Positions 87 through 52,592 are shown, numbered from the whole stretch's first letter. The stretch: 63,455 nt of DNA, filler included, from Reclinomonas americana ATCC 50394 (GCA_048213135.1; 10 parts of 10 records of this genome joined end to end with filler, not necessarily neighbours in it); one strand, 5' to 3'. The notes: generated from the sequence alone by a model not told the origin. Made by a program: numbers and translations.

Positions 87-3000
87 CTGGCCTCTTGAAG
101 GACAAGAAGAAGAAGAAGCACGCTGTCGAGAGCACAGCCGCCGTTGCCGCTGCCCGAAGTGACGCGGAGAATCGCACTGAGCAGGGTGCGTCTCACTCTG
201 TCTCTCTCAGTCATTGGTGTTCTCGTGTCGCGTGCTGTCTCACCTGGGTGGTGCATGCACACAGCTGCCCACCAGGAGCACATGGAACGCACAGCGATGG
301 AAGGCATCGTCGAGGTACAGTGATTGTGTGTATCATCCCAAGATAAGCATGTCTCTCACTGAACTCTCTCTCTCTCTCTCTCTCTTTCATGGCATGATTG
401 CACAGCAACATGCGAGGAGGCGGCGAGTCGACTCATCTCTGCTGGATCAAAGTGAGGACTCGTCTGCACGTGACTCAGTTGAGATATCGGTCCGCAAGCG
501 TTCGCTGGAGGTGAACTCCGATGAGGCATGCGCATCGCTTGCATCTCGATCGTGTATGGCAGTTGACACCTGATGTTCTCTTCATTCTCCGCAGGTGGAT
601 GCATCCAGCGATGATGAGCTTGCGCCGCCAAAGAAGAAGAAGAAGAAGGTGTGAATTCTCTGTCGCTGACATTGTTGTGCTTATTCATCAATCTGCATTC
701 GGGTCAACGATGTATGTCGTGGATTCACAGCTCGGCAAGACTCGAGCTGCGAAAACCCCAGTGGAGTTGAGCACAGACGAGAAGCTGCTGCTGAACAAGC
801 TGCTTGTTGCGTGTGCATGCTCTCTCTGACATCGTTGCAACGCCTTCAGCCTCCTCCTTCTCCTCGTCGCACTCACTATTCTTCTTATATCACTCACAGC
901 GATGCAATCGGAAGAGGATCCTTGTGAAGGCATTCGGGTTGATGGCACCCATTGTTCAGAAGTCCACTGTCATCCACCATCAGAGTGTCCTCTTTGAGCT
1001 GGCATGTGGCGACCGCGGGATTCCGTCGTCGGAGCGGGGTTGCTCGTCGTCAGCAGTCAAGTGTACATTCGGCAAGAGGCTTGGCGGAACTGCCATGCAC
1101 TCACGCAGTGAAACGCCCAAATCAGTTGAGGGTGTGCTCCAGAGCGTGAGCAAGTACGTCGAGGTGAGCAAGCATGTGCGTTGTTACGGCCGTGGCATAT
1201 TGAACCAACATGCAGATGATTGCACAATGCAGATGAGCCAGCTCAGCGGCGCGGCTCTGGTGGATGCCGTTGAGAGACCGCTGATTGTGGTAGATGAGCG
1301 TGGATATTCGGATGTGAGTTTGTGATGCATGATACTTTGTGTAAGCTGTGATCATGCCGATTGACGTTTATTCTCTCGGTTTGTTCGAGGTAGGAATCAT
1401 GGGAGAGACTGTCTCCAGCGAACAAGGCCCTGAAAGACCATCGACTGCCGTTTGTCACGGAGGCTATGGATGCGCTGCGCGAGTGTGATGGTCTTGTAAC
1501 TTCTCTACTTCGAGACAACCACCTCTCTGAGGCCGAGATTGTACGCGCCGTCACGTGGTGCCATGCGAAAGGTCTGCATTTGCGGCTATTGGTGTTGCAC
1601 TGATGTTGACCAGCATTACGCAGAATCTGGCGATGTGAAAATGGTGGTGAAGAAAGGCGACGATGACATCAAGCATGAAGAAGATGACACCAAGGTGAGC
1701 ATCAACAGGGTGTATCTTCGTGGTCTCGGTCACGCGCTGATGCGTTGCGTTCATAGGAGGATGCAGGAAGTGATGATGGTGAAGAATCAAAGCCGAGAAA
1801 GGTACGACGTTGTCGCCGCCTGTGTATGGCTTGGGACGCAGTTGTGTTGATAGATGATGTCTCATGGGGTCCGTATTTGCAGCGCGTCAAGTGCGGTCGC
1901 TATGCATTCAATGCGGATTTGAGCAAGGACGAGCGAACCGTGCTGGGCAGACTGCTTGTTACGTGTGCAATACCCCAGCAAGGCAGATTAGTTGCACTCT
2001 GCCATGTGCTTGTCTGTCATAACACCTGGTGCGTGCGTGGATGTGTGCGAACAGCGGTGCAACAAGAAGAGGATACTGGCGATGGCATTCGGTATCATGG
2101 CACCAGTTCTGAAGCCATTCACTGTTTTGCATCATCAGCGCGTTCTGGTAGAGCTCGCCTGCAAGGAGTGTGGTATTCCTTCATCGGGAGCTGGCAGTCC
2201 GTCGCCTGCAGTCACGGATTCATTCGGAAAGACTCTTGGTCGTGTCGGCAACAAGTCACGCACCAACACGCCCAAATCAGTTGAGGGAGTACTCCAGAGC
2301 ATGAGCGACTTCATCGAGGTGAGCATCGGTCTGTGCTCTCCATCTCTGGTGCGACTGGAAAGTGAGCCAACGACAGTGCATGTGATTTCTTGCAGAAGAG
2401 TGAACTGCGCGGCGATGCTCTGGCAGATGCCATTGAGAGACCACTGATTGTGGTTGATGAACGAGGCCATTCGGAGGTGTGCCGTCTTTCCATTGTGTGC
2501 TCTCTGCATTTCCTGGGTTGCGTCGACTCACCCGCTTCTTTCACGATATCGAATGTGCTTCAGGAGTCATGGAAGACGATGAAGAACAAGCCGAATGGCA
2601 GCAACCGTCTCCTATCGCTCGTCGTCCAAGCCGCGCAGGCCCTGCGTGAGTGTCCTGGCTTGCAAGCGTCGCTGATTCGAGACGGCAGTCTCTCCGATGA
2701 GGAGATCACACGGGCCGTCGACTGGTGCAGCGAAAGAGGTTTGGTTACAGCAGGTTCGTTCTATTGTGCGAAATGTCAGTGCTGACGAGCGAGATGCAGC
2801 TCTGCTGGAGGCCAAGGTGCTGAAGAAAGAAGAGATGAAGGAGGACGAAGTGGATAATTCGACGGGCGACTCCGGCGAAGGTGACAGGAGCAAGGTATGA
2901 CCGTGAATGATGGTGTGGGTGCATACTGGCATCGTCCTATGGAACGCATTCACAGCGACAAGGGACTGCTCCAACAACGATGAGCAAGGACGAGAAGCTG

Positions 3001-25800: not shown

Positions 25801-28752
25801 TCATCTTGCTGATTGAGTACTTGTCGCACCGCCCATGTGATTCATGGGAGAGCAGTGCTGCAATAAGAGGAAGATATTGGTGATGGCGTTTGGCATCATG
25901 GCACCGATTGTGATGGGATCCACGATCTGCCATCATCAGCGCATTCTTTTTGACTTGGCAAGCGAGGAGTGTGGCATCCCTTCATCGAAAGCAGGCTGCC
26001 TGTCGTCGGCAGTTGTGAGCTCATTCGGCAGGAGTCTTGGCCATGTCGTCCAAAACGTACGCGACAAGACGCCCAGGTCTGATGAGGGAGTGCTCCAGAG
26101 CATGAGCGACTTCATTGAGGTGAGCAGCATCCGTCTCACTCGACTGAATAAATATCATCGCTAATGTGTGTGGCATTATGCAGAAGAGTGAACTGCGTGG
26201 CGCTGCTCTGGCGAACGCCATTGAGAGACCCCTGGTTGTGGTGGATGAGCGTGGCTATTCGGAGGTTGGCTGCGCTGCACTCAGTGTGCGTTGTACATAT
26301 TGACTGCCATTTTCTCATGCTTTCTGTTCTGGAATTTGGTTGTCAGGAGTCGTCAAAGTTGCCGGGGATGCAGCACAACAAGCAGACACTCCATCAACCA
26401 TTCATCACGCTGGCAATGCAAGCTCTCCACAATTGCCCTGGCCTGCTGTCCACTCTGCTCCGAGACGGCTGTTTTTCGAAGAAAGAGATCACACGTGCTG
26501 TCCAGTGGTGCGGTGAACGAGGTTTGGCTGCGTGACTTGCACAGCTGCACAGTGTGCGCATGTGCTCAACAACGATGGAACAGCACTGAGGGAGATGGAG
26601 ATGGTGAAGAAAGAGGAGAAGAGGGAGGAAGAGCAGGAGGACGAGGACGATGGCAAGGTACGCCCGTCGCTCGTTTCCATTAGACGCTGCGAGACAGATG
26701 CGCGTCCTTACTCTGCGTGGATTGCGCTTCACAGCGCCGCAAGAGTGGTCCTGGGAAGCTGAGCATCAACGAGCAACTGATTCTGGCGAGGCTGTTTGTT
26801 GCGTGTTGCTGTTATCTGTGCATGTCACCGACAATGCTGTTACTCCCATCTGCTCACCTCGCCTCGGAGCAGCGCTGCAACAAGAAGAGGATGCTGGTGA
26901 AGGCATTCGGTCTGATGGCATTCGTGGTGATGGAGTCTACAGTCGTCCATCATCAGCGTGTTCTCCTCCAACTTGCCTGTGACGAATGCGGAATACCGTT
27001 TGAGGGACGGGGCTGTCCATCATCCGCGGTCATGGCTGCATTCGGCAACAGTCTTGCCGGCAGTGCCAGTAGAGCACGTTGCGAGACGCCCAAGTCAATT
27101 GAGGGTGTGCTTGAGAGTATGAGCAATTTCATAGAGGTGAGTGTCGGTGTGTTGTTTCAGTATCCTTTCGATTGTTATGTGCGTGGTACCTGACTCGACT
27201 TTGACGTGAATGTCACCATCAGAAGAGTGGTCTTCGGGGAGCTGCGCTGTTGGATGCCGTCGAGAAGCCACTGATTGTGATTGACGAATGTGGCCACTCT
27301 AAGGCGCGTGTGAAATTGTGTGTTTGCTAATTCGCGTCATTGAAAGCTGGCTCACATTTATGTGGCTTGGATGGCAGGAATCAGCAAAGTCGCAGAAGGG
27401 AGGCGCTCCTAATGCTCTTCTGCCACACATCATGCAGGCCATGCAGGCTCTCCACGGCTGTCCAGACCTGCTGGCCACTCTGCTTCGGGACGGCTGCCTT
27501 TCGCAGGCGGAGATTGCACGTGCCGCCGCATGGTGCAGTGAAAGAGGTTCGGCTGCTTGTGCTCGTGGCTTCATTGCTTACGTGCTGAGAAATGAGTGAC
27601 CAGTCGTCAGGGAGATGGAGATGATGGAGAAAGAGGAGGAGAGGAAGGGTGAGCAGGAAGAAGATGATGACGACATCGAGAGTGTGGACGATGACGCGAA
27701 GAGAAACAAGGTACGCCCGACGCTGCTTTCTATGAGATATGTATGAGGTACGTCTCAACACTGCGTGGCCTGTGTTTTAACAGCGCCGCAAGATTGATCC
27801 TGCGAAGTTGAGCATCAACGAGCAATTGATGCTAGCGAGATTGCTTGTTGCGTGTTCTTTGCATCGCCGACATTGCTGTCACAAATTCCTCGCTCACTCC
27901 CACCCATGCGTCACACCTGAGAGCAGGGCGGCAACAGGAAGAGGATGATGGTGAAGGCATTTGGCCTCATGGCACCCGTGGTCATGGAGTCTACAGTCGT
28001 CCATCATCAGCGAGTTCTCTTCCAGCTGGCCTGTGACGACTGCGGAATACCATCGAAGGGACCGGGCAGTCCATCATCCGCAGTCATGGCTGCATTTAGC
28101 AAGAGTCTTGCCGGCAGTGCCAACACGACACGCAGCACGACGCTCAAGTCTGTGGAGGGTGTGCTCGAGAGCGTGAGCAATTTCATCGAGGTGAGTGCCA
28201 GTTTGTTACTTCTGTGTCACATCTGCTTGTGGTGTGTCTGGCAACTGACCTGGCTTGCGTCGTGTGCATGTGGAATCATCAGAAGAGCGGACTTCGAGGA
28301 GCTGCGCTGGTGGATGCTGTCGAGAGACCACTGATTGTGATTGACGAGCGCGGTTACTCTGAGGCATGTGGACGACGACTGTTGGGATCGCTTTTGTGCT
28401 CCGATGATGTGATGACTGACTTTGCTGTCGTATTCTCGGATGGCAGAAATCAGACAAGTTGCGGAAGAGCAGCAATCCAAATTACCTTCTGCCTTATGTA
28501 TCACAAGCCATGCATCTGCTCCACAATTGCCCTGGCCTGCTGGCCACTCTGCTTCGAGACGGTTGTCTTTCAAAGGCGGATATTGAGCGTGCTGGTGAGT
28601 GCTATAAATGCAACAATCGGGGGTCGCCTGCTGTTGTTGCTCGTCGTGCCAACATCAGCACTGACGAGCATAATGCAGCACTGGGTGACGAGAAGCCGGT
28701 GAAGATGGAGGTGGTGAAGAAAGAGGAAGAGGAGGAGGAGGAGGACATGTAG
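22879..28752 (+). CDS. Five-domain repeat protein, copy 4 (5' end in gap)
   Basis: Resumes mid exon 2 after the gap; five modules; TAG 28750-28752. Confidence 0.85.
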
Positions 28753-29848
28753 AGCAGGTAAAACAGTTTTAGTTGTAGAAGGAAAGCATACGAGACCTGT
28801 TGGCGATCACTGGTAGATGCTCATTGTTGTGTATGGATCAGTGAAGTTTCTATTATTTCAAAGAGACGGTGGCGGAAAGGGGATGTGAAGAGCAAGACGC
28901 TGCGGTGGATGGACGACGTGTGCCTGCATCGGTTAGTGGCGGGGGAGTGTGAATGAGTCGGCAGCGGGTGGGATGAGAGAGGGGAAGACGGTTCACTGGC
29001 CAAGCAGCGCATGCATGGTGTTGTGAGGTCGATAAAGCTTGTCGAAAAAGAAGGAAGCAGGAACCCAGTGCATCAGTATTTTAAACAGCTGTCCTGTGTT
29101 GTGAGGGACGGACTCTTTATGTGTGTTTTTCTCTGCATGCAGCTGAATGTTGTTGTTGTTGTCGCAGGAGGAAGAGCAAGATGAGTGAAGGATTTGAACC
29201 GGGGCCATCATTTGACTTGGTGGGCGAATGAATGCTGCTGTTGTGCGTGCAGCCGCCACGGAGGCATGCATTTGCTGTCGTGATTTTGCATGAGAATGGC
29301 TGTCTTGTTGACCAAGGCCAGCCATATTCGAAAACAGCGACACTTGCTTCTTCTGTGTGTTCATGACAGCGGCAGAGCACCAGACCGCTGGTGCATGATG
29401 GCAACCAACAGACTCATCGCGTGATTGTACAAGTAACTCGTATTTCCAGTGGGTCGATGTGGATTGAGCACCAGCTTCCTGATCCGTGTTCTCCCCGTCT
29501 GATCATGAGATCTAGAGATCAGAACAAGAGGCATGCAGATGCTGGTCATCGAGTACAATTGCAGTTGATGATGTAACTACGTTGTTCAGTTCCAGACTCA
29601 CCTCTCTCCATTTCTTCCCCACGGCATCGCTTCTTTTTACAACGTCGACGTCGCAGTCGGTCGACGTTCCCCAGAATCATCTGTCAATTGCAACGCGCAT
29701 TCTCTCTCAGCCCTGCTAAACACAGACTTTATGCTCCGGCGCAAAGCTGCCGCTGTGTTTGCCGGGCGCTTGTTAGTTGAAGCTTGCGTCCTGCTGGTCC
29801 TCTCTATTCTCCCTTTCTCTCTCGCGCAACAACAAACAACTACTCACC

Positions 29849-30065
29849 ATGGACGCCGGCGACAACATTCAGGGCATTGAGCAGCAGGAGGCGGCTCCTT
29901 TCGTCGACCAAGTCGGCAACGAGGCGTTTCGTTCACACACACACAAACGCACAAAATCAAACACAACACTTTTTTCCCCCACACCCTCACTCTTCTCCTC
30001 TCGCGCGCAGCATCGAGGAGGTGAACCAGATCCTCTCCGGTTTCGGCGCCATTGCCGGCAAGTGA
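29849..30065 (+). CDS. Putative two-exon 43-aa microprotein (or 5' exons of a longer gene)
   Basis: CACCATGG start; intron 29926-30010 (GTTTCG...CAG); spliced MDAGDNIQGIEQQEAAPFVDQVGNEAIEEVNQILSGFGAIAGK*. Confidence 0.45.
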
Positions 30066-30606
30066 TGCAACAGCACACGCAGCATGCATGTTGTGTGTTG
30101 AGTGAAACTTCTCGCAGTGTGACATTGCTTGTGACGGGAGTGGAGGGGTAGAAGTGAGAGAAGAAGAAGAGGAAGTTGGACTCGGTTCCTTTGTCATGCC
30201 TCTCGTGGCACTTGACATCTCTCTCTGAGGGAGGAATGATCGAGACTTGTTTGTGTATGCATGTGTGTGCGAGAGATAGAGAGAGCAGTACGTGNNNNNN
30301 NNNNNNNNNNNNNNNNNNNNNNNNNNNNNNNNNNNNNNTTAATTAATTAANNNNNNNNNNNNNNNNNNNNNNNNNNNNNNNNNNNNNNNNNNNNGTCCTC
30401 TCCTCTCTCCTCTCTCTCTCTCTTCTCTCTCCTCCTCTCTCTCTCTTCTCTCTCCTCTCTCTCTCTCTTCTCTCTCCTTTCTCCTCTTCTCTCTCCTCTC
30501 TCCTTTCTCTTCTCTCTTCTCTCTCCTCTCTTCTCTCTCCTCTCTCCTTCTCTTCTCTCTCCTCTCTATCTCTTCTCTCTCTTCTCTCTCCTCTCTCCTC
30601 TCTCCA

Positions 30607-30637
<31 letters not shown>

Positions 30638-31260
30638 GCCCTCCACATATCGCAGTTGTCTCTCGCACAATCTGGCTTGCATTGTAGACTCTCGCTCGCT
30701 TTCTGACAGCTTTCCTTCTTGCCTTCCATCCTGTGCACTCATAATCACGTTAGCAGCGTCTCTCTCGCTCTCTGATCGCTCTTGGTTCTTGCATGCTGAT
30801 CTTTGCACTCATTGCTTCCGCGTCCTTATCGTTCCTTTCCTCTTCTTTGCTCCTCCGCGTCTCTTGCACATCGCCTCGTCCTCTTCGCTCTCGCCACCTG
30901 AGCGCTGTCATCCCTGCTCTCGCTCTTCCTCACATCTCAAACTTGCTCTGTATCTCCCTCGTCGTTCCTGTGCTCATGGTCAGCTGCAATCTTCACTCGC
31001 TCTCGTCGGCGCTCCTCCTTTCTCACTTCTAAGAGGTGTGCTCGTCGTCCTCCGATTCGTTTCTTCGGTGCCCGCACTCTTTGCCGTTCACTCTTCCTCG
31101 TCCTCCTCATTGTGCCTTTGAGCTCTTGTTGTCCTCGCTCGCTCACTTACTCTCACTGTTCCTCGTCTCACATCTCAGAGGCGCTCGTCATTCTCTCCTC
31201 ATCTTCGCATGCTCACCCTTCTCCTTGCCCACCCTTCACCACCCTTGCCCCCTCCCGCAG

Positions 31261-34200
31261 CCTTCTCCGGCGGCGTCGCCCACCCACCCGGCTACCCCCT
31301 CTTCACCCTGCTCGCCCGCGCCGCCATCCGCCTCCTCGACTGGCTCCCCTCGCCCACCACCGTGGCCTGGCGCGTCAACATGCTCAACGCCGTCATTGCG
31401 AGCGCCACCAGCGCGTGTCTCTTTGCGCTGGTGTGCCGCCTCACGCGGAACAGCGTGGCCATTGCGGCGCTCGTGTGCGGACTCTTTTCGTTCTCGCCCA
31501 CCACGTGGGAGAACGCGGTGGTGGCCGAGGTGTTTGCGCTGAATAATTTGTTTACGGTGCTGCTGCTGTGGCTGCTGGTCGAGTTTGCGGTGGCGGAGGA
31601 GCGGCGGCGAGTGACGCTCAGTCGGTACGGTGCCGTGCTGTGTGGACTGGCCATGACCAATCAGCACACGATTGCCTTGTATGAGGTAAGGGGGGAAAGG
31701 AGGGGGGAAGAAGGGAGGGTAGGGAGAGGGAGAGGGAGAGAAAAGAGGGAAAGGGAGGGGGAGAGGGATGTAAGAGGGAGAGCAACAAAGACAAGGGGGT
31801 GGGGGGGGGGGGGGGCACGAGAAGCGTTGCATGCTGCTTGCTATCGATGAGCATTCTCAGTCACTCATTCACTTCCTTGCTTGCTCGTACATACATGACT
31901 TTTCTCTTCTTAATCTCTCTCTCTCACTCATCTCAGCACTCCCTCGCTTGCTCTTACGTACATGACTCTTGTCTTTATCTCTCTCTCTTTCTCTCTTTCC
32001 CTATGTCACTCACTTACTCACTCTCTCGCGTGCTCGTACATGCATACTCTATCTCTCCCTAATCTCTTTCTCACACACACTTGCTTACTTGATCACTCGC
32101 GCAGACACACGCTCACTGTCTCTAGCTTTTCTCTCTCCCTTCGTCTCTCTCACACACTCACCCCTTCTCACATGCTCGCGTATACATACTCAGTCATTCA
32201 CTCTCACCTGCTCGCACACACTTGACTGTTTCGCTCTCTCTCTCTCTCTTGCACCCATTTACTCACTTAGTCACGTATGTACTCATTCACTCCCTCGCTT
32301 GTCACATGCATGACTGTTTCTCTCCCTAATCTCTCTGTCACACACTCCCTTACTTAGTTGCGCAAACATGCAGTCACTGCTTCTAGCTTTCTCTCTCCGT
32401 TGGCCTCTCAGTCTCTATGTTCTCTTTCCCTTTGCCTCTCAGTGACTAGCTTCTCTCTCTCTCCCTTTGCCTCTCAGTCTCTCTCCCTTTGCCTCTCAGT
32501 CTCTCTCCCTTTGCCTCTCAGTCTCTCTCCCTTTGCCTCTCAGTCCTTCCCCCTTTGCCCCTTTATCTCTCATTCTTATCCCATCCTCCGCCCCCCTTGC
32601 TGCCGCAGCTTCCCATCATGCTCTGGGTGCTGTGGTCCCTCCGATCCACCCTCCAAAGGCAGCCGCGACTGCTGCTAGACTACGTGGTGCTGCTGGTCGT
32701 GGGCCTGCTGCCATACCTGTACTTGCCCATCTCCACTGCGTGGTCCGAGTCGCGCGCAACGTGGGGTACGCTCTCCTACATGCATCCCCGCCTTTCGCTC
32801 CCTTGTCACTGACTTCCCTTCCCTCGCCGTAGGCGACAGCGCCACTCTTGCTGGCTTTCTCGCCCACTTTTTCCGCACCGAGTATGGCACATTCGACTTG
32901 GCCAACCGCCTGTCGTACGCCGGCGGCAGCAACCCGCTGCAGGGCCTGCTCACGTTTGCCGCGCATTTCTCCGCCGAGTCGCTCCACGTGAGCCTGCCGG
33001 CCGCTGCACTCGGTGTCGCACTGCTCTTTCGCACTCGCGCCAAGGCGGTGAGTTGATGACAAAGGAACGGGGATGCGAGGAGCTTGTCGCCGCTGAGTGT
33101 TCTCTATTTGTAGCCGGTGCTTGCTGCAGCTCGGGTGCCTCTCCTGTCGGCATTCGCGCTGTACCTGCTCTTTTTCCACTCGCGCGCCAACTTGGATCTG
33201 TCGTCGCCGTTGTACTATAGTGTGGTGTCGCGATTTTGGATGCAGCCGTCGTTAGTGTTGCTGCTGTTGGCGGCCTGCGGGATGCACGCCGTGCACGAGG
33301 TGGTGGTGGAGAGGATGTCGTTGAGGAGAATATCGGGCGGTGTGGTGTTGGCGGTGGTGGTGGCGGTGTGTGTGATGCAGGTGGTGGCGCATCGTCAGCA
33401 GGTGGGTGGAAAGGGGAAGGGGGAGGGAAGGGGAAGGGGGAGGAAGGGGGGAAGGGGGAAGGGAGAAATGGAAGGAAGAGCGGTGGGAGGTCTTCTTCGC
33501 TGCTATGCCGTGCAGATCTCTCTCTGGCGCCAGCACACTCTTCCTCACTTCATATCAGCCGAAACTGCCAGCTCTGTCAGATGTCACTTTTGCTTCGACC
33601 TTTGCAGTATCCACTGTCGCATTCCCTCTCCCTTTCCCACTCTCCGAATTTCATCTCCTTCTGCGATTCTGTGGAGCGTGCGTCTTCACTTGGAGGTTTC
33701 GCCCTGCCTTGTCTTCAGCGGTGATCTCGTCCATTGCATGAGCAGGGTGCATGTGGTTGCTGTTCTTGCAATCGTCGTAAGTAATTCCCTTCTGCTTTTT
33801 CAGTGTATGTGCTGCTCGCGCGTTTCCATCGCAAGAATCTTCAGGGGAACAGAACGGGCACTCTTTCGGGGATTCTGTTGTGTGTCTCATGGACGATCAG
33901 TCCATGAGACATGTCTTCTTCTAGCACATGAAGCCTCAGCGACAGAAAAGGAGTCTTCTTCAGGGATTCTGTTGTGCGTCTCTCGTGGACGATCAGTCCA
34001 GTCTTGTCTTCTTCCTCCATGATTTCGATCACTGCATGGGCAGAATGCATGTTGTTGCTGTCTTTGATGGTGTGCCTGTCCATCGCTTCTTGCAGTTGTT
34101 GTGATGTTTCTTGTGTGCTGCAGCTTCAGTTTGTTTACTGTTTGCACGTTTTGATCTGTGCTGATATCAGGGGCATGAACGGGGCATCTCCAGGGATTCT

Positions 34201-36310: not shown

Positions 36311-37039
36311 NNNNNNNNNNNNNNNNNNNNNNNNNNNNNNNNNNNNNNNNNNNNTTAATTAATTAANNNNNNNNNNNNNNNNNNNNNNNNNNNNNNNNNN
36401 NNNNNNNNNNCTCGTCCCCACCTCCTGGACTCCCTCCCGCTCCCACCGCTGAGCAAGTTCCGTCGCGAGTCGTGGGAGCGCTTCACCAGGCAACAGATGA
36501 TTGTGTTTCAGTATTGTTGCGTGCTTTGTCTCTCTCTCTCTTCACATACACGCCACGACTTACCCCCCCTTCCCCTCGCCCACAGACAAGGCCAGTCGAG
36601 GAATGATGAAGGTCTCCACTCCCTCTTCCCCCACTCATCCTCACTTTACCTCACCCTCCCCCTTCTCCCCTCACGGCAGCACATCCCCTCTCTCCCGGAG
36701 GACAGTCCACTGCGACGCTCGGTGCTGCTGGAGGTGGTGCGCATTGCCGAGTGGGCAGTGGCGGCGTTGGACGACGAGATCCGGCCGGTGGATGCGCCGT
36801 CGCGCGCCACGATGGATGCCATGCATCGCGTGGTCGGCGTCGGGCACTACCTGCTGATGCTGCATGCGCTGACGCCGAGCATGGAGGAGCGCGAGAGGCA
36901 TCGCGAAAAGGCCGTGGCGGCGATTGGTTATTACTTGTCGTTGGGGCATGCGGATCAGCAGAGGGCGATGTTGGAGTCGGTGGTGGAGACGTTTGCGGGG
37001 AGGGGGTCGTTGGAGGTGGTGAGGTTTGGAGGGGGGTAA
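31261..37039 (+). CDS. TMEM260: TMEM260/DUF2723-family membrane protein (putative protein O-mannosyltransferase), multi-exon, 5' partial
   Basis: Motifs GVAHPPGYPLF, AEVFALNNLF, GLAMTNQHT, GLLPYLYLP, HFFRTEYGTFDL, FFHSRANLD...RFWMQ, LLVRGDL...LCDGLRPD. Exons start at 31261, 32609, ~32833, ~33114, 34596, 35001, 35131, after the gap at 36411, ~36586 and 36680; TAA at 37039. Confidence 0.9.
32400..32544. repeat. 22-bp intronic minisatellite (CTCTCCCTTTGCCTCTCAGTCT)n
   Basis: About 4 perfect plus degenerate copies. Confidence 0.85.
33800..34460. repeat. Degenerate dispersed intronic repeats (CTTCAGGGATTCTGTTGTG-like core)
   Basis: Core recurs near 33865, 33958, 34190 and 34425; GAAGCCTCAGCGACAGA occurs at ~33930 and ~34400. 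Confidence 0.6.
35793..36194. repeat. 13-14-bp intronic minisatellite (GGGAACGCAGTGA[A])n
   Basis: About 30 tandem units in blocks of variants. Confidence 0.95.
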
Positions 37040-39834: not shown

Positions 39835-40504
39835 GTGCGTGAATACACAAGGGGAGAGAGAGAGAGAAGAAGAAGGAGGAGGAGGAGAAGAAGAAGAAGA
39901 AGAAGAGACGATGCGCTCCACTCCATACACAGTGAGAGAGACTGTGTGCGTGAGTGTGAGAGTATGTTGTCAGAGCTCACGAATACGCACGGTCAGCGAG
40001 TGAACAGAGACGCGTAGAGTGTGTGAGAGAGAGTCTGATAGGGAGTGTCGGAAGTCGCGGAGGAGAGGAAGAGAAGACACACACAGTGAGCGAGGAATAG
40101 AGATGCGGAGAGTGTCAGAACCGACGATTGGAGAGAGAGGAGGACGAGGAGCAGAGAAACTGAGAGAACAACGCAACGCGAACAGACACGTACGCCGACA
40201 TAACACATTGCGAGAGGAGAAGAGACAGAGAGCGCACGGCAGCGAAGAGAAAACTCATACCACTCTCTTCACCCAAGCACAATCTCTCAGTGAGAGAGAG
40301 AGAGACAGGAATGGTGAGAAGTAGGGAGAGTGAGAGGCAACTCCTCATACTCACACATGCTGTTAGAGATGGGGAGCGCACGGAGAGGAAAGGGTGGATG
40401 AGAGNNNNNNNNNNNNNNNNNNNNNNNNNNNNNNNNNNNNNNNNNNNNTTAATTAATTAANNNNNNNNNNNNNNNNNNNNNNNNNNNNNNNNNNNNNNNN
40501 NNNN

Positions 40505-41737
40505 TCACATGCAGACGCGTCATCGTGCAGGGCATGCAGCACATCCCCGCTGTCCTCGACCGGGCCTGCCTGCTCGTCGTCCACGTCCAGCAGCATGCCA
40601 CCAGAAGATTCGCCACGTGAATCCTCCGACACCGCCATCGCCTCCACCACCACAACCAGCTGCTCGGCCTCGGCAGTCGGCTCGATCGGCAATGCAGTCT
40701 CACCACCAGCAGCCACCTCGTCGTGCAGGGCATGCAGCACATCCCCGCTGTCCTCGGCCGGGCCAACCTGCTCGTCGTCCACGTCCAGCAGCATGCCACC
40801 AGAAGATTCGCCACGTGAATCCTCCGACACCGCCATCGCCTCCACCACCACAACCAGCTGCTCGGCCTCGGCAGTCGGCTCGATCGGCAGTGCAGTCTCA
40901 CCACATGCAGACGCGTCGTCATGCACGGCGTGCAGGCCATCCCCGCTGTCGTCGGCTGGGTCACCCAGCTCGTCGTCCACGTCAGGCAGCATGCCACCAG
41001 AAACGACAGCCAGATGCTCGGCCTCAGCACTCGGCTCGATCGGCCGTGCAGTCTCATCACATGCAGCCGCGTCGTCATGCAGGGCGTGCAGCACATCCCC
41101 GCTGTCCTCGGCCGCACCACCCTGCTCGTCATCCACGTCAGGTAGGTCAACGGCTTTCGCTTCCACAGGAACGGTGATCGTCCAAGCCTCCTCTGCCACC
41201 TCCTCCTCGTCGTCATCTGCGGCTGCTGTCACGACGATCATTGGCGGTACAACGTGCCACACGTCAGAGAGCTCTGCGTCGTCGTCCGGAAGTGCCACGT
41301 TGGCTCCACCAATGTCCACAGTAACTGACTCGTCCGTAGCCACCACATTCTCGGCTTCAACGACCTGCGTGCCCAACACCTCCTGGTGGCACTCGTCAAC
41401 AGTCGGTGCGCGACTTGCCTCCTCTTGCTCCATCGGCAACCTGTCGCCCGCCACACTTTCTTTGTCGTCCTCGTCGTCTTCTTCTCCTGCCTCCACCACG
41501 ACGACAGAGCACGGCATGGAATCGTCACCGGCCGCCGATCTAATCCACTCGGCCGCCGGCTCATCCTCCTGCGACAACATACTTCCTGCCTCCGGCGACG
41601 GCGCCGGCGTGATGGCATACGGCTCATCGACCGCGGCCCACTGCCCGGCCTCGCTTGGCGGCGCTGGCGATGGAACGGGTGTGGCGGCAAGCGGAGCGTC
41701 AACATCATCATTCTCTTCCTCATCCTCATCCTCATCC

Positions 41738-41775
<38 letters not shown>

Positions 41776-42816
41776 GCCAAAGGCACTAACGTGCCACTGA
41801 TCCGCACCAACCGGCGGTGGTGATGACGGCGGTGACGATTCCGGCGACGGCGTTGCATCGCTCAGCGGTGAAGGCGGCGCCGTCACATTCGCCAGTACCA
41901 CTTCGCCCGGGTGCTCCGTCGAACCGAGCAGCATCGGCAGCAACGTCTGCACAGACTGACCAGTGGCGGCCGCCTCATGCACCTGCGCCAACTGCAACTG
42001 CGTGACACGCAGCGCGTCGTGCACCGCCACCTGGCGAGCCAACAGACCCTGCAACTCAGCCTCCGCAGCCATATCCACCGACCGCCGCCGTCGCTCCCTC
42101 GCCCGCCGCACCCGCTGCTCCACCGCCTGTAACAGCGCCAAATTCTCCCGCCGCAGCTCCTCCTGCTCCAACTGCAACGCACGCTCCAGCGTCGCCATAT
42201 CCACATTGGCCAGCACCTCACGCACCTCCTCCTCCGTCACCACAATCTCCTCGCCCGAGTCGAACAACACCGGCAACGACTGCTCCTCATCGTCATCGAC
42301 GACACTCGCCGCCGGCACCGGCAACAACACAGGACGAGCCGACATGCGCGCCACATTCTGCACCTCCTCGTCACACTCGCTCCACTCGCCCTCCTGCATG
42401 CGCATCATCAGCGCCTCCTCGACCACGGCATCCATCGGCGAATCGTCGACTGGCACACGCGGAGGTGGCGGAGGCGGTGGCGGCGGTGGAAGCGCACGAT
42501 TACCAGGCACATGCAAGAACTGTTGCTGTTGTTGCTGTTGTCGTTGTCGTTGTCTGTGATTGGTCGTTCGCGGCTGCACCGGCGAGGGCGACATGGTGAG
42601 TGCGCTCTCCGACGTCTGATCCATGGACAATGAGGAGGTGTCGTCAGTGCTCATGGCGGTGGGCGTCGGAGATGAGTTGGCGGCGGCCAGCTCCGGCAAG
42701 AGCGTGGCGTACTCGTGCACGAGCAGAACGCGCTCTTCGTCGGTGACGTCACCGACGAGCGAGGCGAGGTAGGCGTCGAATTCGTCAATGGTGGGAAAGG
42801 CCCCGCCGAGTTGGAG
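40505..42816 (-). CDS. Large exon of a very acidic low-complexity protein with a coiled-coil-like stretch and 66-aa tandem repeats (both ends in gaps)
   Basis: Acceptor TAATAG at 42817 after a pyrimidine tract; ~770 open codons; poly-Q, poly-P and poly-D/E; repeat period 198, 198 and 156 nt at 40523, 40721, 40919 and 41075. Confidence 0.8.
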
Positions 42817-43736
42817 CTATTAAGGGGAAAGGGAGGAGAAAGTGAGGGGAAGAGAGGGGGAAGAGAGAAGGGGAAGAGAAGGGGAAGAGAGGGGGAGAGA
42901 AGGGAGAGAGAAGGAGAGAGAGGAGAGAGGAGAGAGGAGAGGGGAGGGGAGAGAGGAGGTAGAGAGGAGAGAGGAGTAGAGGAGAGTAGAGGAGAGGAGA
43001 GAGAGGAGCGAAGGGAGAGTGGAGAGGAGTGAGAGACGAGAGAGGAGAGNNNNNNNNNNNNNNNNNNNNNNNNNNNNNNNNNNNNNNNNNNNNTTAATTA
43101 ATTAANNNNNNNNNNNNNNNNNNNNNNNNNNNNNNNNNNNNNNNNNNNNAGGGGGAAGAGAAGGGGGAAGAGTGAAGGGAAGAGGGAACGGAAGAGAAGG
43201 GGGGAAGCGAAGGGGGGAAGGGAAGAGAGAAGGGAAGAGAGAAGGGAAGAGAGAAGGGAGGAGAGAAGGGAGGAGAGAAGGGAAGAGAGAAGGGAAGAGA
43301 GGGGGAAGAGAGGGGAAGAGAGGGGAAGAGAGAAGGAAGAGAAAGGGGTGAAGGTTGATTGGTGGCAAGTAATTGGTTGACGAGTGAAGAAAGAGTGTGT
43401 GTGGGAGAGAGTGTGTGTGTGCGTGTGAGAATGTGTGTGTGTGAGAGAGAGAGAGTGCAGAGAGAGAGAGAGAGTGCGAGAGAGAGTGCGAGAGATTCCT
43501 GTTTGTCCGAACACTACCAACGACGCCTCTCTCTCATTCTCACACACTTTCTCTTTCACTCACTCACCGCTCTCTCTGTCTATCTCACACTCACCTCAGC
43601 CAACAACGGCGTCAACGCCATTATCGCATCCAAAATCAAAAAAAAAGACAGAGAGAAAAAGAGTGATCCACGGTCCAATCGAGTCAACGAAGCGACACAA
43701 CACATTACACGCATCCTCTGAGGTCCGCACGCACGC

Positions 43737-46902: not shown

Positions 46903-47002
46903 NNNNNNNNNNNNNNNNNNNNNNNNNNNNNNNNNNNNNNNNNNNNTTAATTAATTAANNNNNNNNNNNNNNNNNNNNNNNNNNNNNNNNNNNNNNNNNN
47001 NN

Positions 47003-47213: not shown

Positions 47214-47471
47214 TGGGGGCGAAGGGCTCTTGTGCTCGACAATGCTCTGGAGCACTCTTTCGAACTGCTTGCCGTCACTTGCACCAGCTTGTGAATGTCG
47301 CAACCCGGCTGCCTTCCGCTGTCCAGCATCTACATGTACACTCCATTTTTTCTCGTTCAACTTCTCTGCCCAGTCCTTGTGACGTTCACTTTTCTTTCTT
47401 CCTCGCTTGTAAAGTGCTTATGGACAGTTGTGCCGAATGAAGAAGAAGTCTCTTATCGCCCTGTGTCTGCG

Positions 47472-47495
47472 GAAGTCTCGTGAACTTCAAAGTGC
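47472..47495 (+). promoter_or_regulatory. Conserved dyad GAAGT-N7-ACTTC upstream of WD40 genes
   Basis: Seen at 47472, 48928, 50381, 54051 and 55513, 92-129 bp before each ATG; partly deleted at ~52504. Confidence 0.4.
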
Positions 47496-47589
47496 GATCG
47501 TCCCAATGCAATTCACAGAAGATCACATAACATACACACGCACACACACTAACTCCTTCGCCTCCCTTTCCTGCCTCCTTCACTCTCCC

Positions 47590-48675
47590 ATGCCAATCGC
47601 TCCTCTCTTCCTCTGCACACGCGAGCCGGGGCTCCACACAGGTTGGGTGGAGAGTGTCGCCGTCACTCCCGATGATCAACACATCGTGAGTGGTAGTGAA
47701 GACGCTGTGCATGTGTGGTCCCTGGCGAGTGGTGAGGAAGTTCGGCGGCTGGAGGGCCACACTGGTGCAGTGTACTCTGTCGCCGTGACTCCCGACGGGC
47801 ATCACGTGGTTAGCGGCGGTGATGATAACACCGTGCGTGTGTGGTCTCTTGGGAGTGGGAGGGAAGTGCGACGACTGAAGGGACACACTGATGTGGTGTA
47901 CTCTGTTGCCGTCACTCCCGACGGTGAACACATAGTCAGTGGGAGTTATGACTGCACTGTGCGAGTGTGGTCACTTGCGAGTGGGAAGCAAGTGCGACGG
48001 TGGAAGGGACACACTGACTGGGTGCGGTCTGTCGCTGTCACTCCCGACGGTCAGCACGTTGTGAGTGGCAGTTCCGACAGTACAGTGCGTGTGTGGTCTC
48101 TGGCAAGTGGAAAACTTGTGCGACAACTGGAGGGACATGCTGACGAGGTAACCTCTGTCGCCATCACTCCCGACGGCCAGTACATTGTGGACGGAGGCGA
48201 AGACTGCACACTTTGCCTGTGGTCCCTGGTGACTGGCGAGGAGATGCGGCGGCTGGAGGGTCACACTGGAGGTGTGTATTGTGTCACCGTCACTCCCGAC
48301 GGTCTGCACATTGTGAGCGGGGCTGGCGACAACACGGTGCGAGTGTGGTCCGTGGCGAGTGGTGACGAGGTGCAGTGTTTGGAAGGACACACGAGCGGTG
48401 TGTTGTCTGTCGCCGTCACTCCCGATGGACAGCACATAGTGAGTGGGAGTGAGGACGACACAGTGCGCGTGTGGTCCACGCCTTGCGGTCTGGCGCGGAT
48501 CGAGCTCGACAAGGCGCGCTCGGCGATGCAAGCGGTGCAGGAGATGCAGCACCGCGAGGATGATGAGGAGCCTGATTCGCGCTGCTTGCCGGAGATTGTG
48601 TTGCGCTGCTTCGTTGTGGAGGAGGCCGCGGTTGTGGTGCATCGATGCCTCACCGACCCTCAGCTGCACCTCTGA
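47590..48675 (+). CDS. WD40 array gene 2, 361 aa, intronless, 7 repeats, long tail
   Basis: Start chosen by alignment with paralogues (MPIAPLFLC); GH...VAVTPDG.HIVSG..D.TVRVW x7. Confidence 0.9.
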   Translation: MPIAPLFLCTREPGLHTGWVESVAVTPDDQHIVSGSEDAVHVWSLASGEEVRRLEGHTGAVYSVAVTPDGHHVVSGGDDNTVRVWSLGSGREVRRLKGHTDVVYSVAVTPDGEHIVSGSYDCTVRVWSLASGKQVRRWKGHTDWVRSVAVTPDGQHVVSGSSDSTVRVWSLASGKLVRQLEGHADEVTSVAITPDGQYIVDGGEDCTLCLWSLVTGEEMRRLEGHTGGVYCVTVTPDGLHIVSGAGDNTVRVWSVASGDEVQCLEGHTSGVLSVAVTPDGQHIVSGSEDDTVRVWSTPCGLARIELDKARSAMQAVQEMQHREDDEEPDSRCLPEIVLRCFVVEEAAVVVHRCLTDPQLHL

Positions 48676-49056
48676 TTGGATAGCAAAGGGCTTGTGCGAT
48701 TGGCAAGGCTCTGGAGCACTCTTTCGAACTGCTTGCCGTCACTTGCACCAGCTTGTAAATGTCGCAACCCGGCCGCTTTCATACGCGTCGTCCAGCGTCT
48801 CCACTCCTTTTTTCGTTCAACTTCTCTGCCCAGTCCTCGTGACTTTCACTTTTTTTTCTTTCTTCCTCGCTTGTAAAGTACTTTTGTTCAGTTGTGCCGA
48901 ATGAAGAAGAAGTCTCTTGTCGCCCTGGAAGTCTTGCGAACTTCAAAGTGATCGGTCCCGACACGCATTTCTCACACGATCTCAGTCCGATCTCACACGC
49001 ACCCCCCATTCCCTCTCTCCCACCTCTTCCTTCTCCTCTCTCTCCTTTTCCCTCCC

Positions 49057-50133
49057 ATGTCATCCACGCCCCTCTTCCACCGCAAACACACCCTGCAGGG
49101 ACACTCTGCTGTCGTGTGGTCTGTCGCCGTCACCCCCGACGGTCGATTCGCAGTCAGTGGTGGCAACGACCAGACGGTGCGTGTGTGGTCGCTGGCAAGT
49201 GGTGAGGAGGTGCAGCGATTGGAGGGACACGATGAAGCGGTGCTGTTTATCGCCATCACTCCCGATGGGGAGCAGATTGTCACGGGCAGTGGAAGCAACG
49301 TTGTGCGCGTGTGGTCACTGGCGAGTGGCAAAGAGGTGCGACAGTTGGAGGGTCACACTCTGTCTGTGAGGGCGGTTGCCGTCACCGCCGATGGGCAGTA
49401 CGTGGTGAGTGGAGGCATCGACAGGACCATTCGCGTGTGGTCGCTGGCGAGTGGCAAACAGGTGCAGCGATTGGAGGGTCACACTGGATGGGTGTGGACG
49501 GTCGCTGCCACTCCAGACGGTGAGCACATTGTCAGTGGAGGTGATGACAACATGGTGAGAGTGTGGTCTCGCGTGAGCGGAGAACATGTGCGCCGAATGG
49601 AGGGGCACACGGATATTGTGCAGTGTGTCACCGTCACTCCCGACGGTCAGTGCGTGGTGAGTGCGGGCCGAGATGACACTGTGCGCGTGTGGTCACTGGC
49701 GAGCGGTGAGGAGGTGCGGCGGTTGGAGGGGCACACGCATTGGGTGAGGTCTGCCGTCGTCACTCCCGACGGGCGACACATTGTCAGTGGCGGATGGGAC
49801 AAGACTGTGCGAGTGTGGTCTGTGGCGAGTGGAGAGCAGGTGCAAGTGTTGGAGGAGCACACGGACGGTGTGTCGTCTGTCGCCATCACCACCGACGGGC
49901 AGCGTATTGTGAGCGGGACGTTTGACAGCGGTGTGTATGTGTGGTCCACGCCATGCGGTCTGGCTCGACATGAGCTTGACAAGGCATGCGCGTCGATGCA
50001 AGCGGTGCAGGAGATGCAGACGGGGGAGAATGAGGAACGGTGCTTGCCAGAGATGGTGCTGCGCTGTTTCATGGTCGAGGAGGCCGAGGTGATTGTGTAT
50101 CGGTGCCTCACCGACCCGCAGATGCACCTGTGA
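49057..50133 (+). CDS. WD40 array gene 3, 358 aa, short tail
   Basis: Single ORF with 7 WD40 repeats. Confidence 0.9.
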   Translation: MSSTPLFHRKHTLQGHSAVVWSVAVTPDGRFAVSGGNDQTVRVWSLASGEEVQRLEGHDEAVLFIAITPDGEQIVTGSGSNVVRVWSLASGKEVRQLEGHTLSVRAVAVTADGQYVVSGGIDRTIRVWSLASGKQVQRLEGHTGWVWTVAATPDGEHIVSGGDDNMVRVWSRVSGEHVRRMEGHTDIVQCVTVTPDGQCVVSAGRDDTVRVWSLASGEEVRRLEGHTHWVRSAVVTPDGRHIVSGGWDKTVRVWSVASGEQVQVLEEHTDGVSSVAITTDGQRIVSGTFDSGVYVWSTPCGLARHELDKACASMQAVQEMQTGENEERCLPEMVLRCFMVEEAEVIVYRCLTDPQMHL

Positions 50134-50474
50134 TGGGGGGCCGAGTAGGCGACGCCCTTAAGCTCGCTGGTGCTGCCTGTTCTTTGCAGGAGTCCACCTT
50201 CATATCGATCGCCTCCGTGGCACTGTTGGTTCTCCTCGTTTGTTGACCTTGCCCCTCACTCTCGTTCAACTTCTCTGCACAATCCTTGTGACTTTCGCTT
50301 TCCTTTCTTTCTCGCTTGTAAAGTACTTTTGTTCAGCTGTGCCGAATGAAGAAGAAGTCTCTTGTCGCTTTATGACTGCGGAAGTATTGCGAACTTCGAA
50401 GTGATCGTCGTCCCGGCACATTTCGCACACACAGTCCACCGACACACACGCACTCCCCCTCCCCCCTCTCCCGC

Positions 50475-51560
50475 ATGTCATTCGCTCCTCTCTTCTTATG
50501 TAAACTCGTGCTTGAAGGGCCCTCAGAGGTCTCATGTGTCGCCTGCGCTCCCAATTGTCAACACATTGTGAGTTCGAATGCTTACGAGACACTGCGTGTG
50601 TGGTCTCTGGCAAGTGGTGAGGAGGTGCGCCGGTTAGAGGGCCACACTGGTGTGGTGCTCACCGTCGCCGTGACTCCCGACGGGCAACATGTTTTGAGTG
50701 GTGGTGAAGACTGCACCGTGCGAGTGTGGTCCTTCGCGAGTGGCGAGGAAGTGCGACGGTTGGAGGGACACACTGCTGTGGTGTACTCGGTTGCCATCAC
50801 TCCCGACTGCGAGCACGTGATCAGTGGGAGTTATGACAAGACGGTGCGGGTGTGGTCACTTGCGAGTGGGAAGCAAGTGCGACGGCTGGAGGGACACACT
50901 GACTGGGTATGGTCCGTCGCTGTCACTCCTGATGGCCAGCACGTTGTGAGTGGGAGCTGGGACAGAACTGTCAGAGTGTGGTCTCTGGCGAGTGGGGAAG
51001 AAGTGCGACGACTGGAGGGACATGCTAAAAGGGTAGTCGCTGTCGCCGTCACTCCTGACGGGCTGCACGTGGTGAGTGGCAGCGAGGACAAGACAGTGCG
51101 AGTGTGGTCATTGGCAACTGGCGAGGAGGTACAAGTTTTGGAGGGCCACTCGGACGCAGTGTATTTTGTCGCCGTCACTCCCGACAGCCAGCACATTGTG
51201 AGCGGGGGTGGCGACAACACGGTGCGAGTGTGGTCCGCGGCGAGTGGCGAGGAGGTGCAGCGTTTGGAAGGACACACGAGCGGTGTGTTGACTGTCGCCG
51301 TCACTCCCGATGGACAGCACATAGTGAGTGGGAGTGAGGACGACACAGTGCGCGTGTGGTCCACGCCTTGCGGTCTGGCGCGGATCGAGCTCAACAAGGC
51401 GCGCTCGGCGATGCAAGCGGTGCAGGAGATGCAGCACCGGGAGGGTGACGAGGAGCCTGATTCGCGCTGCTTGCCGGAGATTGTGTTGCGCTGCTTCGTT
51501 GTGGAGGAGGCCGCGGTTGTGGTGCATCGATGCCTCACCGACCCTCAGCTGCACCTCTGA
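50475..51560 (+). CDS. WD40 array gene 4, 361 aa, long tail
   Basis: Single ORF with 7 WD40 repeats, the first degenerate. Confidence 0.9.
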   Translation: MSFAPLFLCKLVLEGPSEVSCVACAPNCQHIVSSNAYETLRVWSLASGEEVRRLEGHTGVVLTVAVTPDGQHVLSGGEDCTVRVWSFASGEEVRRLEGHTAVVYSVAITPDCEHVISGSYDKTVRVWSLASGKQVRRLEGHTDWVWSVAVTPDGQHVVSGSWDRTVRVWSLASGEEVRRLEGHAKRVVAVAVTPDGLHVVSGSEDKTVRVWSLATGEEVQVLEGHSDAVYFVAVTPDSQHIVSGGGDNTVRVWSAASGEEVQRLEGHTSGVLTVAVTPDGQHIVSGSEDDTVRVWSTPCGLARIELNKARSAMQAVQEMQHREGDEEPDSRCLPEIVLRCFVVEEAAVVVHRCLTDPQLHL

Positions 51561-51832
51561 CTGGATAGCCTACAAGTGGGCTTGTAGGCTCGGCAATGCT
51601 CTGGAGCGCTCTTTCGAACTGCTTGCCGTCACTTGCACCAGCTTGTCCATGTCGCAACCCGGCCGCTTTCATACGTGTCGTCCAGCGTCTCCACTCCGTG
51701 TTTCTCGTTCTCTGCACGATCCTTGTGGCTTTNNNNNNNNNNNNNNNNNNNNNNNNNNNNNNNNNNNNNNNNNNNNTTAATTAATTAANNNNNNNNNNNN
51801 NNNNNNNNNNNNNNNNNNNNNNNNNNNNNNNN

Positions 51833-52335
51833 CCATCGCCGTCACTCCCGACGGGCTGCACGTGGTGAGCGGCAGTGCCGACATGACAGTGCGTCTGTGG
51901 CTGTTGGCGAGTGGCGAGGAGGTGCGGCGGTTGGAGGGACACACCGGATGGGTGTATTGTGTCGCCGTCACTCCCGACGGCAAGCACATTGTGAGTGGCG
52001 GCGATGACGACACCGTGCGAGTGTGGTCACTCGCGACGGGCGACAAGGTGGACCGACTGGAGGGGCACAATGTGCTGGTGTCGTCTGTCGTCGTCAGTCC
52101 CGACGGCAAGCACATTGTGAGCGGCAGTCTTGACGAGACCATGCGAGTGTGGTCCACACCTGGAAGCATTGCTTGGAGTGAGCTCGACGGGGCGCGCTCG
52201 GCGATGCAAGCGGTGCAGCAGATGCAGATGGGGGAGGGTGAGGAACGGTGCTTGCCGGAGACGGTGCTGCGGTGCTTCATGGTGGAGGAGGCCGAGGTGA
52301 TTGTGAATCGGTGCCACTCTGTGCTGCACGTGTGA
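51833..52335 (+). CDS. WD40 array gene 5 (5' part in gap), short tail
   Basis: Last ~3 repeats plus a divergent tail ending CHSVLHV. Confidence 0.85.
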
Positions 52336-52592
52336 GGCGTTGGGGGTGAGAACGTGTCAAACGGCATGGTGCTTGTTTGGCAACTCGCCTCCTCGTCTTC
52401 CCGTTAGTTGGCCTCTTTTCATTCATTTCCTTATCCTCCTTTGTAATGTACTTTGTTTCCATCCGTCCCCGGTGCAAACAAAGAAGCCTCTTCTCGCCCT
52501 TCGGAAGTCTACAAAATGATCGTCGTCCCACCAGTTTGCACACAAACACACGCTCGCACGCACTCCCTCTTCCAGTTCTATCTCCTCTCTCC

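Follow-up and report, generated by a model that had tools for sequence, protein, structure and literature searches.

The 63,455-nucleotide (nt) stretch of DNA from Reclinomonas americana ATCC 50394 (GCA_048213135.1) that was analyzed here, hereafter called the window, is not one continuous stretch but consists of ten contigs of eukaryotic DNA chained by nine artificial spacers, each of the form 44 N, TTAATTAATTAA, 44 N (at 7794-7893, 15620-15719, 22779-22878, 30295-30394, 36311-36410, 40405-40504, 43050-43149, 46903-47002, and 51733-51832). Four of the contigs each hold one copy of an intron-rich gene with five related modules: copy 1 on contig 1-7793, copy 2 on 7894-15619, copy 3 on 15720-22778, and copy 4 on 22879-30294. 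Every module contains a segment of 10 residues that varies strongly around an invariant arginine, which a first-pass annotation had proposed as a possible modular recognition code.

Organization of the four gene copies

Exon models were built from conserved reading frames and GT/GC-AG sites, so that splicing is predicted throughout. All four genes lie on the plus strand. Copy 1 (2..6027) is open at its 5′ end, at the start of the contig, and runs from K/R-rich N-terminal exons through five modules to an acidic tail and a TAG stop codon at 6025-6027. For copy 2 (7896..13801) and copy 4 (22881..28752), the contig begins within the first recognized exon, and copy 3 extends over 15785..21923, as placed by the exon tables. 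No start codon was found in the gene models. Four short exons precede module 1 and contain clusters of lysine and arginine (KDKKKKK, ARRRR...RKRS, and PPKKKKKK) that resemble nuclear localization signals (NLS), in keeping, at the level of sequence, with the annotation's description of an NLS-bearing protein.

Each of the 20 modules is composed of five exons in these models, with introns of 52 to 111 nt at conserved positions, and all 20 splice into intact, stop-free frames whose lengths are multiples of three, with GT/GC-AG introns. The first intron of the module (e.g., 806-899 and 1958-2054) has the predicted donor GTTGCG in 18 modules and GTTACG in 2, unlike the other introns, which carry a GTGAG-type donor; the predicted donor of the third intron is GC in 7 of the 20 modules. 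A module comprises a core of 185 to 199 amino acids (aa), encoded by exons 1 to 4, and an acidic linker of 24 to 66 aa, encoded by exon 5, for a length of 209 to 251 aa with the linker, and a poly-Glu/Asp tail closes the last module. The cores are basic (isoelectric points of 8.2 to 9.6), especially in the half encoded by exon 2, whereas the linkers and the tail are acidic (4.1 to 4.7).

The modules cluster by their position in the protein (modules 1 to 5) with bootstrap support of 98 to 100%, indicating that the five-module protein is older than the gene duplications. Synonymous divergence (dS) between modules at the same position is 0.14 to 0.39, and the regions flanking the genes on both sides are homologous between contigs, with 82 to 97% identity; copy 4 alone departs from this homology, with unrelated sequence starting about 700 bp beyond the stop codon. 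The closest pair of copies changes along the unit: in the coordinates of copy 1, it is copies 2 and 4 at 551-2091, copies 1 and 4 at 2490-3645, copies 2 and 3 at 4806-5993, and again copies 2 and 4 at about 6258-6638. In the 3′ flank of the genes, a stretch of about 400 bp diverges by as little as 0.3% between copies 2 and 4 (at about 14000-14400 in copy 2 and about 28950-29350 in copy 4; the counterpart in copy 1 is 6258-6638), as opposed to 10 to 17% for the other pairs, a sign of recent gene conversion. The homologous flanks and the mosaic pattern of similarity make it likely that these sequences form a tandem array subject to gene conversion or unequal exchange. We infer the tandem order of the four copies rather than read it directly, because each is on its own contig.

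That each copy occupies its own contig, joined to the others by artificial spacers only, is also what divergent haplotypes, strains, or assembly duplicates might produce, in which case the variation would be allelic and not among paralogues of one genome. This explanation is very unlikely, given the dS between copies, the change of closest partner along the unit, and the homology of all four contig flanks, with only copy 4 reaching unique sequence, as would be the case where an array ends.

Near their 3′ ends, contigs 1 and 2 contain an ATG-initiated open frame (MAARRPPPTPRP...) rich in serine, aspartate, and lysine, at 7202-7672 and in a homologous stretch within 14554-15216. This frame enters a (GT)n microsatellite shortly before the contig end and may represent the first exon, otherwise missing, of the following gene copy. 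Microsatellites of (TTC)n, (GT)n, and (GA)n occur at many contig ends.

Divergence of the 10-residue segment

A six-frame scan of the whole window for the pattern F-x-x-x-[LFI]-(10 aa)-x-[PL]-[KR]-S returned exactly 20 matches, all on the plus strand between 1068 and 28151, and none elsewhere. Arginine occupies position 8 of the segment in all 20 modules, there are no insertions or deletions within it, and 19 of the 20 strings are distinct. The scan and the alignment thus bear out the earlier report of exactly 10 residues with Arg-8 in 20 domains, and all 20 strings quoted in it are correct; of the flanking blocks that it described, both are present in every module, but the downstream one needs widening to [TMA][PL][KR]S to accommodate the APRS of module 5 in copy 1.

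Located by both the scan and the alignment, the segments of modules 1 to 5 in copy 1 are GGTAMHSRSE (1083..1112), GRVGNKSRTN (2238..2267), RSVVQHVRDK (3293..3322), AGNASTARGT (4296..4325), and ASSANTARRT (5337..5366). Those of copy 2, in the same order, are GDTANSSRGR (8823..8852), GNVVRMARKK (10001..10030), AKLCQQIRDK (11078..11107), ADNVKDARSK (12090..12119), and ASSAKVARCK (13143..13172), and copy 3 has GETAEHSRTK (16794..16823), GHVVNMTRAT (17993..18022), GHAVNKARAN (19087..19116), ASSALNARNK (20102..20131), and ASSASTARGT (21164..21193). Copy 4 has GQTTNSSRGR (23803..23832), GRVGNKSRTN (24983..25012), GHVVQNVRDK (26039..26068), AGSASRARCE (27056..27085), and AGSANTTRST (28110..28139). The sole repeated string, GRVGNKSRTN in module 2 of copies 1 and 4, is identical as protein and differs by one synonymous change, although the remainder of the module differs by about 13%, a pattern consistent with a single specificity having been retained or with a short tract of conversion.

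Variation within the segment is confined to particular positions. Small residues, characteristic of each module type, occupy positions 1, 3, 4, and 7, and arginine is constant at position 8, whereas positions 2, 5, 6, 9, and 10 are hypervariable, each with 9.5 to 14 nonsynonymous versus 0.5 to 2 synonymous changes. The 100 residues at the five variable positions include 15 N, 15 K, 13 S, 12 T, 7 R, 6 H, and 5 Q, corresponding to enrichments of 5.7-fold for asparagine, 3.4-fold for threonine, 2.6-fold for histidine, and 2.3-fold for lysine, which agrees with the polar composition noted in the annotation. Alanine, valine, and leucine are almost absent, and the large hydrophobic residues amount to one leucine, one valine, and three methionines, with no phenylalanine, tyrosine, or tryptophan.

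Rates of change in the 10 codons of the segment were compared with those in the remaining 189 aligned codons by the Nei-Gojobori method over the 30 pairs of same-position modules. In the segment, nonsynonymous divergence (dN) is 0.403 and dS is 0.245, for a ratio of 1.65; elsewhere in the module, dN is 0.095 and dS is 0.226, and the ratio of 0.42 indicates that the genes are under purifying selection. Local hypermutation was rejected because dS in the segment equals dS elsewhere, and since dS is not raised, the nonsynonymous excess can be ascribed to selection. Parsimony counts along the within-type branches of the maximum-likelihood tree assign 82 nonsynonymous changes to the segment versus 15 synonymous ones (ratio of 1.75), and 497 versus 360 elsewhere (binomial P = 0.007 against the gene-wide synonymous rate and P = 0.025 within the segment alone). 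The segment is also more divergent than the neighboring introns, as had been suspected from inspection: its proportion of differing nucleotides is 0.287, versus 0.140 for the four introns of the same module, and it is the higher of the two in 25 of the 30 pairs.

Because the copies are mosaic, we also ran tests that do not depend on a tree, applying Fisher tests to disjoint pairs in all three possible pairings. The proportion of nonsynonymous differences (pN) in the segment, 0.29 to 0.33, exceeds both intron divergence (0.12 to 0.15; P = 3e-11 to 4e-9) and the gene-wide proportion of synonymous differences (pS; 0.18 to 0.205; P = 1e-5 to 1.6e-3), and at the five variable positions, pN reaches 0.42 to 0.48.

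Codon site models (a custom GY94 implementation that uses F3x4 frequencies, takes fixed branch proportions from M0, and assigns naive posteriors) favor a class of sites at which the nonsynonymous-to-synonymous ratio (omega) exceeds 1. In the comparison of M1a with M2a, the log likelihood (lnL) rises from -5839.21 to -5824.29 (likelihood ratio test [LRT] statistic of 29.8, P = 3e-7), with omega at 2.6 for 6% of sites. The comparison of M7 with M8, which the annotation had put forward as a check on the segment, gives lnL of -5843.90 and -5819.90 (LRT of 48, P = 4e-11) and omega of 2.0 at 10.7% of sites, and M8a against M8 gives lnL of -5834.44 and -5819.90 (LRT of 29, P = 3.5e-8). With a tree from exon 2 only, the M1a/M2a test chooses the same sites (LRT of 19.5, P = 6e-5); for exons 3 and 4 alone, it gives P = 0.067. 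The sites with high posteriors are segment positions 2, 5, 6, and 9 (0.90 to 1.0), the residue following MAPVV, and several loop residues at the start of exon 4. The second variable spot that had been noticed after MAPVV is real: it corresponds to alignment column 45, where the within-type branches carry 11 nonsynonymous changes against 3 synonymous ones and the posterior for omega above 1 is 0.98.

Predicted fold and searches for relatives

An AlphaFold2 model of the 88 aa encoded by exon 2, computed from the alignment of all 20 sequences, has a mean predicted local distance difference test (pLDDT) score of 71 and helices at residues 4-19, 21-39, 51-71, and 76-87. The segment, at residues 62-71, forms the C-terminal half of the third predicted helix and is followed by TPKS as a turn and then by helix 76-87, a region in which pLDDT is 76 to 78. 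In this exon-2 model, the arrangement can be compared to a helix-turn-helix, in which a short turn joins two helices and the second or a third helix lies in the groove of DNA. The model has helix 51-71, a 4-residue turn, and helix 76-87, but its variable residues belong to the helix that precedes the turn. For exon 3, the retained intron, and exon 4, modeling reached a pLDDT of only 51, and the result was not used. The segment is predicted to be helical with moderate confidence. Of the exposed recognition helix envisaged in the annotation, the helical state therefore agrees with the model, and the variable positions follow a roughly helical pattern, whereas exposure is presumed. With moderate strength, the rate tests point to diversifying selection on one face of the predicted helix.

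Pfam scans at E ≤ 10 of 8 single exons and of 6 natural read-through open reading frames (ORFs) spanning two exons gave no BEN, zf-C2H2, or HMG_box match. Matches to Keratin_matx (E = 0.039) and GCP_C_terminal (E = 0.21) were below threshold and dismissed as chance. Zinc binding by conserved cysteines and histidines was likewise rejected, as none of these residues is invariant in the alignment of the 20 modules. A word-based protein search with exon 2, against longer proteins, found no homologue at E ≤ 0.001, and the single match in a sequence search of the PDB (E = 0.3) was read as chance. The best score in the ESM Atlas was 0.88, with no family. In a scan of metagenome contigs, none of the 296 stretches that matched the pattern was confirmed by tblastn. 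Structure searches with the exon-2 model returned no match at E ≤ 0.001 in Foldseek against the PDB, and VIA wide returned generic helical matches with a best Z score of 5.3; no helix-turn-helix structure stood out in either search. From these searches, the domain appears to be new, matching no family.

The modules had been likened loosely to BEN domains, which have an alpha-helical DNA-binding fold, and by analogy to transcription activator-like effector (TALE) arrays. Repeats of the latter are 33 to 35 aa long and have two variable residues, with one base read per repeat. In favor of these comparisons are only the loose helix spacing noted in the annotation for BEN and the tandem layout; TALE repeats, in addition, are constant in length and place their hypervariable residues at defined positions beside a helix-to-helix turn, as the modules do. 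That the modules are divergent BEN domains or follow a TALE- or PPR-like code of one module per base is nevertheless extremely improbable. Neither BEN (PF10523) nor any other Pfam family matched at E ≤ 10 in single exons or read-through ORFs, and at about 185 to 200 aa plus linkers, the modules are six times longer than TALE repeats and have five variable positions in the segment and at least five selected positions each. Neither the likeness to BEN nor the one-module-one-base code is supported.

A search with an exon-2 profile hidden Markov model (HMM) through 1.84 billion representatives produced two matches at E ≤ 0.001, both with E of about 5e-4. One, P0002, is a bacterial repeat protein and was judged a spurious match. 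The other, P0001, is a eukaryotic record of 488 aa with the source label "merc" and has five repeats of 100 aa, each starting MPSC...F.K.AI......RRSR.PRS. Its hmmsearch E value of 4.8e-4 is summed over the five repeats, and its hhalign score is 30.2, versus 10.7 ± 2.3 (maximum of 16.8) in 60 column shuffles, with a reported probability of 53 to 68%. The likeness consists of a 30-residue motif, P-S-x-x-[VI]-x-x-F-x-K-x-x, then 7 residues, then R-x-x-x-P-[KR]-S-[VI], with the same spacing as in the window, including arginine at place 8. However, the motif alone aligns, the repeats are half as long, and the 10-residue stretch is nearly constant among them. With P0001 as the only lead, the helix-Arg-turn motif may be older than the window's domain family.

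On the remaining contigs are ordinary eukaryotic genes. At 31122-31847 on the plus strand lies an exon of a TMEM260-like O-mannosyltransferase (Pfam PF11028, E = 4e-27), and its best database matches are animal proteins with 48 to 52% identity. By itself, this likeness hints at a holozoan-like organism with no proteins of its own in the collections searched; a WD40 query was uninformative on the point. Fragments of an adaptor-complex medium subunit and of a thioredoxin-like protein are also present. Six consecutive intronless, stop-free reading frames of 386 to 443 aa extend across two contigs at 47413-56690 (plus strand), spaced by about 250 to 800 bp; each has seven WD40 repeats, as in a seven-blade propeller (Pfam WD40, E = 1e-75 to 1e-81), and they represent either a tandem array of WD40 genes or one giant multi-propeller gene. 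A 787-aa open frame without a Pfam match occupies 40453-42816 (minus strand) on a contig of 2.5 kb.

Putative function of the variable helix face

The reading that we prefer, with moderate confidence, is that four or more paralogous five-domain genes are present and that one helix face of their domains is diversifying as a ligand-contact surface, the ligand most likely being nucleic acid. The locus would consist of four or more paralogous genes rich in introns, which probably form a tandem array and still exchange sequence, each encoding a protein with a K/R-rich, NLS-like N terminus, five basic, mostly helical domains of about 185 to 200 aa, acidic linkers, and a poly-acidic tail. Each domain is predicted to have a long amphipathic helix that ends in the fixed 10-residue stretch, whose scaffold would be held by the small residues at positions 1, 3, 4, and 7 and by the invariant Arg-8. 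Positions 2, 5, 6, 9, and 10 would point the other way, and diversifying selection would drive the differences among paralogues at these sites. Together with the spot after MAPVV and the variable loop, this face may form the putative ligand surface that sets what each domain binds. The putative ligand would most likely be nucleic acid, and probably DNA, with the five domains jointly reading a composite target. The invariant arginine may contact the ligand or may only brace the end of the helix. The basic cores, the polar variable face, and the NLS-like patches fit a nuclear protein with an evolvable helix face turned toward a ligand, and DNA recognition by that putative face is plausible. We infer the exposure of the segment, the nuclear location of the protein, and the nature of the ligand.

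The same evolutionary signals would apply if the variable face were a protein-protein recognition surface, engaged in conflict with a parasite, selfish element, or partner or in self/non-self recognition, with nucleic acid not involved. Tandem amplification and gene conversion are typical of gene families that act in conflict and recognition, and no DNA-binding family or fold was matched by the Pfam scans of exons and read-through ORFs or by the fold searches with the exon-2 model. We consider this alternative possible but rather doubtful: the aromatic and large hydrophobic residues typical of interfaces are almost missing from the variable positions, and the basic cores, acidic linkers, and NLS-like patches also speak against it.

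Several points count against ligand contact by a diversifying helix face. The segment is the fastest 10-codon window of the domain, but nonsynonymous change in it exceeds the gene-wide synonymous rate by a factor of only 1.33; an indel-bearing loop at alignment columns 143-155, which looks neutral, reaches 1.2 times, with a local ratio of 0.92. A helical period in the variability is weak: P is 0.034 when the segment is taken by itself and 0.18 over the entire helix, and power peaks at 90 degrees. The choice of the segment was itself prompted by its variability, the site models are a custom implementation in which branch proportions were fixed and posteriors naive, and recombination and mosaic ancestry inflate tree-based tests of positive selection. 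The structural evidence consists of one 88-aa exon model with a mean pLDDT of 71; modeling of the C-terminal half of the domain gave a pLDDT of 51. Acidic residues make up 10 of the 100 residues at the variable positions, conserved polar residues elsewhere in the domain could reflect a different function, and the "recognition code," like the putative ligand binding, is a reasonable but conjectural reading.

The small excess of the whole-segment rate, the nearly equal speed of the nearby loop, the evident mosaic ancestry, and a binomial P of only 0.025 for the segment alone could also mean that the segment is a weakly constrained surface stretch evolving near the neutral rate, with omega above 1 being an artifact of post hoc choice, gene conversion, and small counts. 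We regard this as unlikely because, without reference to a tree, pN in the segment still exceeds intron and synonymous divergence, and most strongly at the five variable sites (0.42 to 0.48, versus 0.12 to 0.15 for introns). Moreover, the segment differs from the loop in having no indels in 20 copies and in its alternation of fixed and variable positions around an invariant arginine, and in module 2 of copies 1 and 4, it has remained identical while its surroundings differ by about 13%.

The domain can be set beside several known systems. The protein UBF has tandem basic helical boxes followed by an acidic tail, and its boxes are not hypervariable. The window's proteins resemble it in having basic helical domains in a row (five or six in this comparison) and then a poly-acidic C-terminal tail; they differ in the variability of the domains and in the lack of an HMG_box match at E ≤ 10 in exons and read-through ORFs. 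Arrays of C2H2 zinc fingers, as in KRAB-ZNF proteins and PRDM9, are built of tandem units of about 28 aa with the motif C-x2-4-C-x12-H-x3-5-H. They share with the window's genes the tandem domains within each protein, the amplified and apparently clustered gene families, and the signs of positive selection on a few helix positions (presumed outward-facing in the window's domains) over a fixed scaffold. It is in this behavior that the analogy with C2H2 proteins and PRDM9 drawn in the first-pass annotation stands; membership in the family does not, since the window's domain, in which DNA binding is putative, has no Cys2-His2 motif and no zf-C2H2 match in exons or read-through ORFs, is about 190 aa long instead of 28, and has five exons per module. 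A literature search, narrow in extent, surfaced only general analogues. Among these are modular C2H2 zinc-finger arrays, as outlined in PMC3113560, and the ETCHbox and LEUTX homeobox genes, which, as outlined in PMC8208926, have likewise undergone tandem duplication, gene conversion, and divergence, but have recognizable homeodomains and one domain per protein, in contrast to a domain that matches no family.

More tentatively, and as a possibility that we rate below the preferred reading, the domain would represent a previously undescribed class of sequence-specific nucleic-acid-binding domains, with an evolvable recognition helix, one invariant arginine, five domains per protein, and a gene-converting tandem array. 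It would then be an independent counterpart of the KRAB zinc-finger and PRDM9 systems in a lineage not represented in public protein collections.

If the variable helix face sets specificity, these genes would provide a new scaffold for evolvable recognition, independent of zinc fingers, TALEs, and PPR/PUF repeats, and the 19 natural specificity variants on one locus would lend themselves to straightforward swap experiments. Whatever its ligand, the domain is without detectable relatives among about 15 billion predicted proteins and appears to be under both purifying and diversifying selection. If the preferred reading is true, this pattern would point to genetic conflict or to a fast-changing target in a poorly sampled eukaryote, for which repeats, mobile elements, and meiotic hotspots are candidates.

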